NCBI RefSeq assembly: GCF_046105845.1
Contig: NZ_CP151004.1
Length of the DNA stretch: 64,000 bases
Direction: 5' to 3' (one strand)
Origin: Escherichia coli
GTDB lineage: Bacteria; Pseudomonadota; Gammaproteobacteria; Enterobacterales; Enterobacteriaceae
Below, one piece after another: positions 18,207-18,438 of this stretch. The translations under genes and the position numbers were made by a program. Numbering within the stretch: the first letter of the stretch is position 1; each line of letters starts with the position of its first letter. Below the pieces are notes generated by a model that was given only the letters and a program-made list of their open reading frames with translations, was not told the origin of the DNA and did not search any database.

Positions 18207-18380
18207 TACAATTCTCTATTGGCGTGGGGAAATCGATGGGGTCAAGGAGGCGTTAAGCAAAGCAGGAGGAGACTGTTTTCCGTAACAGCGTATTGCGCGT
18301 CCATCGCAAATTTGTAGTGAGTATAGCGGGCGGTAAATTCAGGAAACAATGGCGGATAGCGGAAAGTGTAGTTTTTCGGA

Positions 18381-18428
18381 AAAAGATAACTTTATCCCGT
18401 GTAACCCGTTTTAAGCGGGCTACACGGG
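18381..18428 (-). terminator. Hairpin downstream of gltD (possible partial terminator)
   Basis: Inverted repeat cccgtgta...tacacggg 11 nt after gltD stop, followed on minus strand by T-rich ATCTTTTTCCG. Confidence 0.5.
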
Positions 18429-18438
18429 AGGCTGCAAT

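Follow-up and report, generated by a model that had tools for sequence, protein, structure and literature searches.

The end of the gltBD operon in this Escherichia coli strain raises the question of where the glutamate synthase message stops and from which promoter the genes beyond it are transcribed. All features relevant to this question lie on the minus strand of the window, the 64-kb stretch of E. coli DNA that was analysed as a whole. The ORF list and translations place gltB at 19870-24438 and gltD, encoding the glutamate synthase small subunit, at 18439..19857. The latter, also annotated at the identical RefSeq locus, is the terminal gene of gltBD and ends with a TAA stop codon (18441-18439). 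As the first-pass annotation had stated, a second operon follows in the same orientation after 232 bp (spacer 18207..18438). Its first gene (16884..18206) encodes a SWIM zinc-finger protein of 440 aa (Pfam PF04434; RefSeq). Because the N-terminus that follows its ATG at 18206 (MELTVESV...) is unchanged in 7 homologues, this start and the spacer length are secure. A Shine-Dalgarno-like GAGA (18213..18216), 6 nt 5' of the ATG, is kept in all variants.

Four further genes complete the operon. The second (15283..16887) overlaps the first by 4 nt and encodes a DUF5691 protein (Pfam E 4e-121). The third (14192..15286) encodes a MoxR-type AAA+ ATPase (Pfam AAA_5) with 41% identity to K-12 YehL (E 1e-78). 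The mechanical ORF call for this gene begins at a GTG at 15400 and gives 402 aa (14192-15400, minus strand); the RefSeq start is an ATG at 15286 giving 364 aa, which overlaps the DUF5691 stop codon by 4 nt (ATGA) and fits the YehL alignment. The shorter form is likely the real gene. The fourth gene (11925..14174) encodes a DUF5682 protein with 27% identity to YehM (1e-41) and the fifth (10766..11935) a CoxE-like VWA protein with 37% identity to YehP (2e-80), both identified with Pfam. The operon closes with an intrinsic terminator at 10730..10758, recognised by sequence, fold and a terminator score of +20.7, in which GGCCGGA and TCCGGCC are separated by 9 nt and followed by T6. E. coli SMS-3-5 is annotated in RefSeq with the same gene arrangement after gltD.

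Homology to K-12-type E. coli ends exactly at the gltD stop codon, and in K-12-type strains the position of the cassette is occupied by the fimbrial cluster gltF-yhcADEF. Homology resumes at about 10687, in the region upstream of yhcG and the 5' part of this gene, of which the window has a truncated copy. The gltD-yhcG interval is a clean replacement site (10688-18438 of the window against 9263-16358 of L002), and the MoxR/VWA/SWIM cassette takes the place of gltF-yhcADEF in 33 of 5426 complete E. coli genomes. The yhcG remnant (DUF1016/PDDEXK; 10218-10574, minus strand) retains about 118 codons at 85% identity to K-12. Next to it lie some 470 bp (9751-10220) with no K-12 counterpart, and a 101-aa ORF inside this stretch (9825-10130, minus strand) had no NCBIfam match.

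Relatives of the locus were found in two genera. Another Escherichia (L003) has the same gltD-232 bp-operon-nanQ layout, its core genes being 93-94% identical to the window at the nucleotide level. In Klebsiella huaxiensis (L004 and L090) the operon is again followed by nanQ and lies 784 or 978 bp from gltD, with core-gene identities of 80-86%. Synonymous divergence of the operon genes (dS 0.19-0.35) is in line with that of the flanking core genes (0.26-0.34). The operon is rare, but old. Fragments of a yhcG-like pseudogene lie upstream of the cassette in K. huaxiensis (L004 8217-9000; L090 2023-3000) and the yhcG remnant lies downstream of it in Escherichia, so the cassette is not simply fixed relative to yhcG. 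In a further Escherichia variant (L087, 291-1577), the SWIM protein has 428 aa instead of 440, with the same ATG.

On a wider scale, homologues of the SWIM protein number more than 4000 in many phyla, and the gene order of the cassette was kept in all 52 complete loci. With the SWIM protein as query, a GTDB scan gave no match in Enterobacteriaceae. Of 81 distant loci sharing this gene order, none has gltB or gltD close to the cassette, so its linkage to gltBD is a local positional accident rather than a general functional association. In the nearest non-enterobacterial relative (L006, 55% identity), a DUF218 gene on the same strand ends 21 nt before the start of the SWIM gene (8278-10320), so the cassette can sit inside a longer transcription unit.

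We then compared the spacer itself between lineages. The window and L003 differ at 5 of its 232 positions (2.2%) as against 20.2% at 4-fold sites (P ~1e-16), and among five Escherichia variants most substitutions fall within the 80 nt between the hairpin after gltD and the candidate -10 element of the operon, both described below. Judged by this conservation, the spacer is under functional constraint. Such low divergence could also mark a recent recombination patch, E. coli recombining frequently and this locus being a hot spot of replacement. We find this highly improbable: when the window is compared with L003, dS is 0.21-0.34 for the genes flanking the spacer on both sides, the patch would need to coincide exactly with 232 non-coding bases, and a third and a fourth lineage (L087 and L098) show the same pattern, with substitutions clustered from the hairpin to the -10.

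Directly after gltD, 9 nt past the stop codon, begins a stem-loop of 14 bp with a 7-nt loop (18395..18429), which reads UCCCGUGUAGCCCG / CUUAAAA / CGGGUUACACGGGA from 18429 to 18395. Its folding energy is -26.7 kcal/mol (z = -6.27), which was not matched by any of 200 shuffled sequences. Its only substitution across the five Escherichia variants turns a G.U pair into G-C. A REP/BIME-type dispersed repeat was considered and rejected, since a search of the window that tolerated up to 3 mismatches found the hairpin only once. Among the 5426 complete E. coli genomes it occurs once per genome and is confined to the 33 that carry the cassette.

The long hairpin without a strong T-run that had been noticed in the first-pass annotation is thus real. 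Its stem is G+C-rich, as expected of an intrinsic terminator, but no U tract follows immediately: the 3' tail UAAAGUUAUCUUUUU (UAAAGUUA...) contains only 3 U among its first 8 nt. With a d'Aubenton-Carafa-type formula, the weighted T score was 0.75-1.26, versus 4.80 for the terminator at the end of the operon, and the d score was -22 to -33, versus +20.7. A consensus terminator scan found none on the gltD strand in the spacer. One terminator-like match (18293-18309) was discarded as lying on the wrong strand; it is the antisense of a small hairpin in the leader of the operon. Since the hairpin after gltD is not a canonical intrinsic terminator, RNA polymerase probably passes it. The hairpin could nevertheless be a non-canonical, Rho-free intrinsic terminator, perhaps aided by a small hairpin, GAUAAAGUUAUC, and by the U5 run found 11 nt past the stem. 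The great stability of the stem speaks for this, as does the minimum free energy fold, in which a 4-bp mini-hairpin precedes UUUUU. The mini-hairpin, however, has a single G-C pair, and the U5 run is interrupted (UUAUU) in the sister lineages L003, L087 and L098 while the remainder is conserved. Together with the three U in the tail and the negative score, these features make a Rho-free terminator quite improbable.

The RNA that follows the hairpin has an unusual composition. The 78 nt at 18312..18389 contain 25 C and 7 G, which places them at the 99.95th percentile for C/G among all 78-nt windows on both strands of the 64 kb, and the tract is a candidate Rho-utilisation (rut) site. The entire 187 nt between the hairpin and the next start codon are 30.5% C and 15% G. 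Rho-dependent 3' ends have been located just past stable stem-loops without U tracts, with C exceeding G downstream, and these stem-loops shield the message against 3' exonucleases (Dar & Sorek 2018, PMC6061677). The spacer combines both features, a stable stem-loop without a U tract and untranslated RNA with C>G downstream of it. As this combination has been described as the signature of a Rho-dependent end, the missing T-run alone does not predict productive read-through.

This reading gains weight from other gltD alleles. K-12 has, after gltD, a hairpin of unrelated sequence that also lacks a U tract (-22.6 kcal/mol, z -5.5). In K-12 the primary 3' end of gltD was mapped at 3360660, and a bicyclomycin-sensitive Rho termination region at 3361307, about 650 nt downstream (Rho score 4.10, p 2e-16; Adams et al. 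2021, PMC7815308). By our own count, the mapped end is 4 nt beyond the K-12 stem. A third unrelated hairpin of the same type follows gltD in K. huaxiensis (-27.3 kcal/mol, z -5.95). Because three non-homologous hairpins of one type stand at the same place, the hairpin of the present allele would, by analogy, protect the 3' end of gltBD mRNA whose synthesis is terminated by Rho. Two points temper this assignment. The C-rich tract, which overlaps the candidate operon promoter, is kept beside the operon in Klebsiella, 600 nt from gltD, and may thus belong to the upstream region of the operon rather than to a gltD terminator. Furthermore, with the next start codon lying only 187 nt past the hairpin, Rho termination could be incomplete.

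A weighted PWM scan for promoters, with frequencies from published compilations, identified TTGTTT-N18-TATACT as the best site in the spacer (9.32 bits, 99.97th percentile of window positions), where about 0.07 equally good sites would be expected by chance. The candidate -35 hexamer (TTGTTT, 18344..18349) matches the consensus at 3/6 positions and the candidate -10 hexamer (TATACT, 18320..18325) at 5/6. A consensus scan, with its threshold of 9/12, found no promoter in the spacer; the present site matches at 8/12. The predicted transcription start, at about 18313, would give a leader of about 107 nt. TATACT is identical in Escherichia and K. huaxiensis, ending 113 and 112 nt from the ATG respectively, while overall identity is about 66% in Klebsiella. 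The aligned Klebsiella site, TTACCG-N18-TATACT, is among the three best of the 784-978-bp spacer. The first-pass annotation, which had seen no clear -10/-35 elements, needs to be corrected on this point: a sigma-70-type candidate is present at 18349..18320, and its -10 hexamer is conserved together with its position at the orthologous loci of another genus. Two plus-strand promoter matches (18185-18212 and 18312-18339) were set aside, as they are not conserved in Klebsiella. A strong promoter-like site also occurs in Klebsiella 618 nt upstream of the operon (TTGACC-16-TATTAT, 13 bits).

Homology between the Escherichia and Klebsiella upstream regions starts about 175 nt 5' of the ATG, at the block TTCCGAAAA (18373..18381). 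This block, kept in both genera, lies about 65 nt upstream of the predicted start inside the quasi-palindrome TTTTTCCGAAAAA and is a possible regulator site. It is mainly because this upstream homology travels with the operon in Klebsiella that we credit the operon with its own promoter, which would be of the sigma-70 type and either weak or activator-dependent. With the C that precedes the -10 in Escherichia (CTATACT, C at -13), the promoter may be sigma-S-like; this C is not present in Klebsiella. The ravA-viaA operon of E. coli, likewise of the MoxR-VWA kind, depends on sigma-S (PMC3893208).

The alternative is that expression of the five genes comes mainly from gltBD transcripts that extend 3' into the operon, the hairpin serving as a processing or stability element only. 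Strand, short gap and the lack of a canonical terminator are all compatible with this, gltD and the operon are neighbours in three Escherichia lineages and, at a greater distance, in K. huaxiensis, and K-12 textbooks treat gltBDF as a single operon across a similar hairpin (PMC1784095). Against it stand the conserved promoter-like site at a conserved distance to the ATG, the strong rut-like tract after the hairpin, and the K-12 3' end at the hairpin with Rho-dependent loss downstream (PMC7815308). In addition, the cassette is unlinked to gltBD elsewhere, and the Klebsiella operon is separated from gltD by 784-978 bp of untranslated pseudogene debris. Since the K. huaxiensis operon keeps its ~175 nt of upstream sequence despite this gap, it does not appear to rely on gltBD read-through. 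Expression mainly by read-through is consequently unlikely in our view. The suggestion that polymerases might run from the gltBD promoter into the operon thus holds as far as the absence of a canonical terminator is concerned, but is opposed by the C>G tract, the candidate promoter and the distant Klebsiella operon; some read-through is possible. The description of the gltBD promoter as nitrogen-regulated was an over-simplification, as the main regulators of this promoter are Lrp, IHF, Crp and ArgR (PMC1784095). The spacer itself carries no site with the GG-N10-GC core and more than 3/12 matches to the sigma-54 element (TGGCAC-N5-TTGCA), no Nac site (ATA-N9-TAT), no NtrC site with fewer than 5 mismatches and no convincing match to CRP, FNR, ArgR or NanR motifs.

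A promoter at this position would leave a 5' leader of about 107 nt (18207..18313, from the alignments), of which a 72-nt core is unchanged across all Escherichia variants. As a whole, the leader folds no better than shuffled sequences (z +0.76 and -1.13). RNAalifold predicts two elements within it. The first is an imperfect hairpin at 18251..18287 (UGUUAYGGAAAACAG, a 7-nt CU-rich loop and CUGCUUUGYWUAACG), 98.6% paired by pair counts, in which all changes are one-sided. The second is a possible long-range helix (18222..18307) between GCGAUGG (18307..18301) and CCACGC (18227..18222), corresponding to GUCAUGG and CCAGAU in Klebsiella. In 6 variants all 6 pairs of this helix are preserved; two pairs show compensatory changes and one a one-sided change, which together represent a single evolutionary split. 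CsrA binding at three conserved A-N-GGA motifs was considered and rejected, as they match the core motif only and one GGA is paired in the best consensus fold. No Rfam 15 covariance model matched at E <= 1 on either strand of 17700-18900. An nhmmer search with the leader alignment gave no match in the 81 distant cassette loci, which confines the leader to the enterobacterial cassette, and a metagenome scan for its conserved motif yielded a single contig, identical to L003 and thus of no added diversity.

Instead of, or alongside, RNA structure, the invariant core might encode a small translated uORF. The candidate (18242..18304, minus strand) comprises 20 codons (MDAQYAVTENSLLLLCLTPP), four consecutive ones coding for Leu. 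It is open in all five Escherichia variants, and the frame is also open in Klebsiella despite a 1-nt indel, a C-to-T change providing a new in-frame ATG there; ENSL[LF]LLC[LI]TP is common to the peptides of both genera. The 10 substitutions in the uORF are distributed 3:0:7 over codon positions 1:2:3 (binomial p ~0.02 for this frame), which becomes p ~0.06 once three frames are allowed for. On the other hand, neither the Escherichia nor the Klebsiella ATG is preceded by a Shine-Dalgarno sequence, the Escherichia ATG is paired within the predicted long-range helix, and the substitutions sit in loops or bulges of the predicted leader hairpin or preserve its pairs. We therefore regard a leader peptide as conceivable, though doubtful. 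A broader and more speculative proposal, to which we give little credence, is that the ~107-nt leader is a previously undescribed cis-regulatory element made of the long-range helix, the hairpin and/or a leader peptide, which gates the cassette while the C-rich tract insulates it from the strong gltBD unit. Gating could then operate, for example, via Rho-dependent attenuation or control of ribosome access. The conserved leader is the sole mildly novel part of the locus, the rest being a new instance of well-known kinds of elements.

Taken together, these results lead us to favour, with moderate confidence, a compound boundary: gltBD would end in the Rho-dependent manner behind a protective hairpin, and an independent, conserved and probably weak or regulated operon promoter with a constrained leader would follow. 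RNA polymerase coming from gltBD would pass the 14-bp stem-loop, where the U tract on which efficient intrinsic termination depends is absent. Rho would load on the C-rich, G-poor untranslated RNA just past the hairpin and halt most polymerases, after which exonucleases would trim the message back to the stem-loop and leave a stable gltBD 3' end, expected near 18391-18394. The SWIM/DUF5691/MoxR/DUF5682/VWA operon would be transcribed from its own promoter (-35 at 18349..18344; -10 at 18325..18320; start near 18313), and the leader probably carries post-initiation control.

The compound boundary bears on annotation and on experimental design. It marks the probable end of the gltBD message in carrier strains and implies that work on the adjacent operon should start from the promoter and leader of this operon itself, instead of treating it as part of the glutamate synthase operon. 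It also adds further independent examples of a U-tract-less hairpin directly after gltD, in support of the notion that such hairpins mark Rho-dependent ends. Finally, a defined fragment (18207-18360) with a testable -10 offers a route to the signal that switches on this conserved MoxR-VWA-SWIM system.

None of the five operon proteins matched the anti-phage defence HMMs of PADLOC 2.0, NCBIfam gave no informative match, and no solved structure was found for the SWIM, DUF5691 or DUF5682 proteins. Our literature search found no functional study on DUF5682, DUF5691, yehLMPQ or the MoxR+VWA+SWIM combination. The proteins evolve at very uneven rates: a comparison of the window with L003 gives dN/dS values of 0.24 (SWIM), 0.22 (DUF5691), 0.013 (ATPase) and 0.035 (VWA), and amino-acid identities to Klebsiella are 68%, 56%, 94% and 89% respectively. 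SWIM and DUF5691 evolve about 20 times faster within the operon.

Long 5' UTRs may contain leader-peptide or Rho-dependent attenuators, as in tnaC-tnaA and mgtL-mgtA. Like these, the operon has a long conserved leader, a candidate short uORF and C-rich, G-poor RNA past the uORF stop; unlike them, its candidate uORF has no Shine-Dalgarno sequence and no known ligand or stalling motif. The likeness is one of resemblance only. The candidate promoter shares with sigma-70-type promoters a 5/6 -10, an 18-nt spacer and the TTG of the -35, but its -35 matches at only 3/6, it has no extended -10 and its start is predicted.

The operon resembles K-12 yehLMPQ, whose YehL defines one of seven MoxR subfamilies (PMC3893208), in that its AAA_5 MoxR ATPase, DUF5682 and VWA_CoxE proteins are homologous to YehL, YehM and YehP and that both systems include a SWIM zinc-finger protein. 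The gene order, however, is permuted: SWIM comes last in yeh, whereas SWIM and DUF5691 come first here. The two SWIM proteins are not orthologous (E 0.9 against YehQ) and have only the zinc-finger motif in common, and DUF5691 has no detectable yeh counterpart.

The closest parallel for the boundary itself is K-12 gltD. There, Rho dependence and the 3' end were measured, whereas both are predictions for the present allele; the next start codon lies 560 nt after the K-12 hairpin, versus 187 nt here; and the hairpin and downstream sequence are unrelated, homology ending at the stop codon. What the two alleles share, with each other and with Rho-dependent ends in general, is a stable stem-loop without a U tract a few nucleotides past the stop codon, with C exceeding G immediately downstream, and in K-12 it is at this same position after the same gene that the 3' end of the message was mapped.
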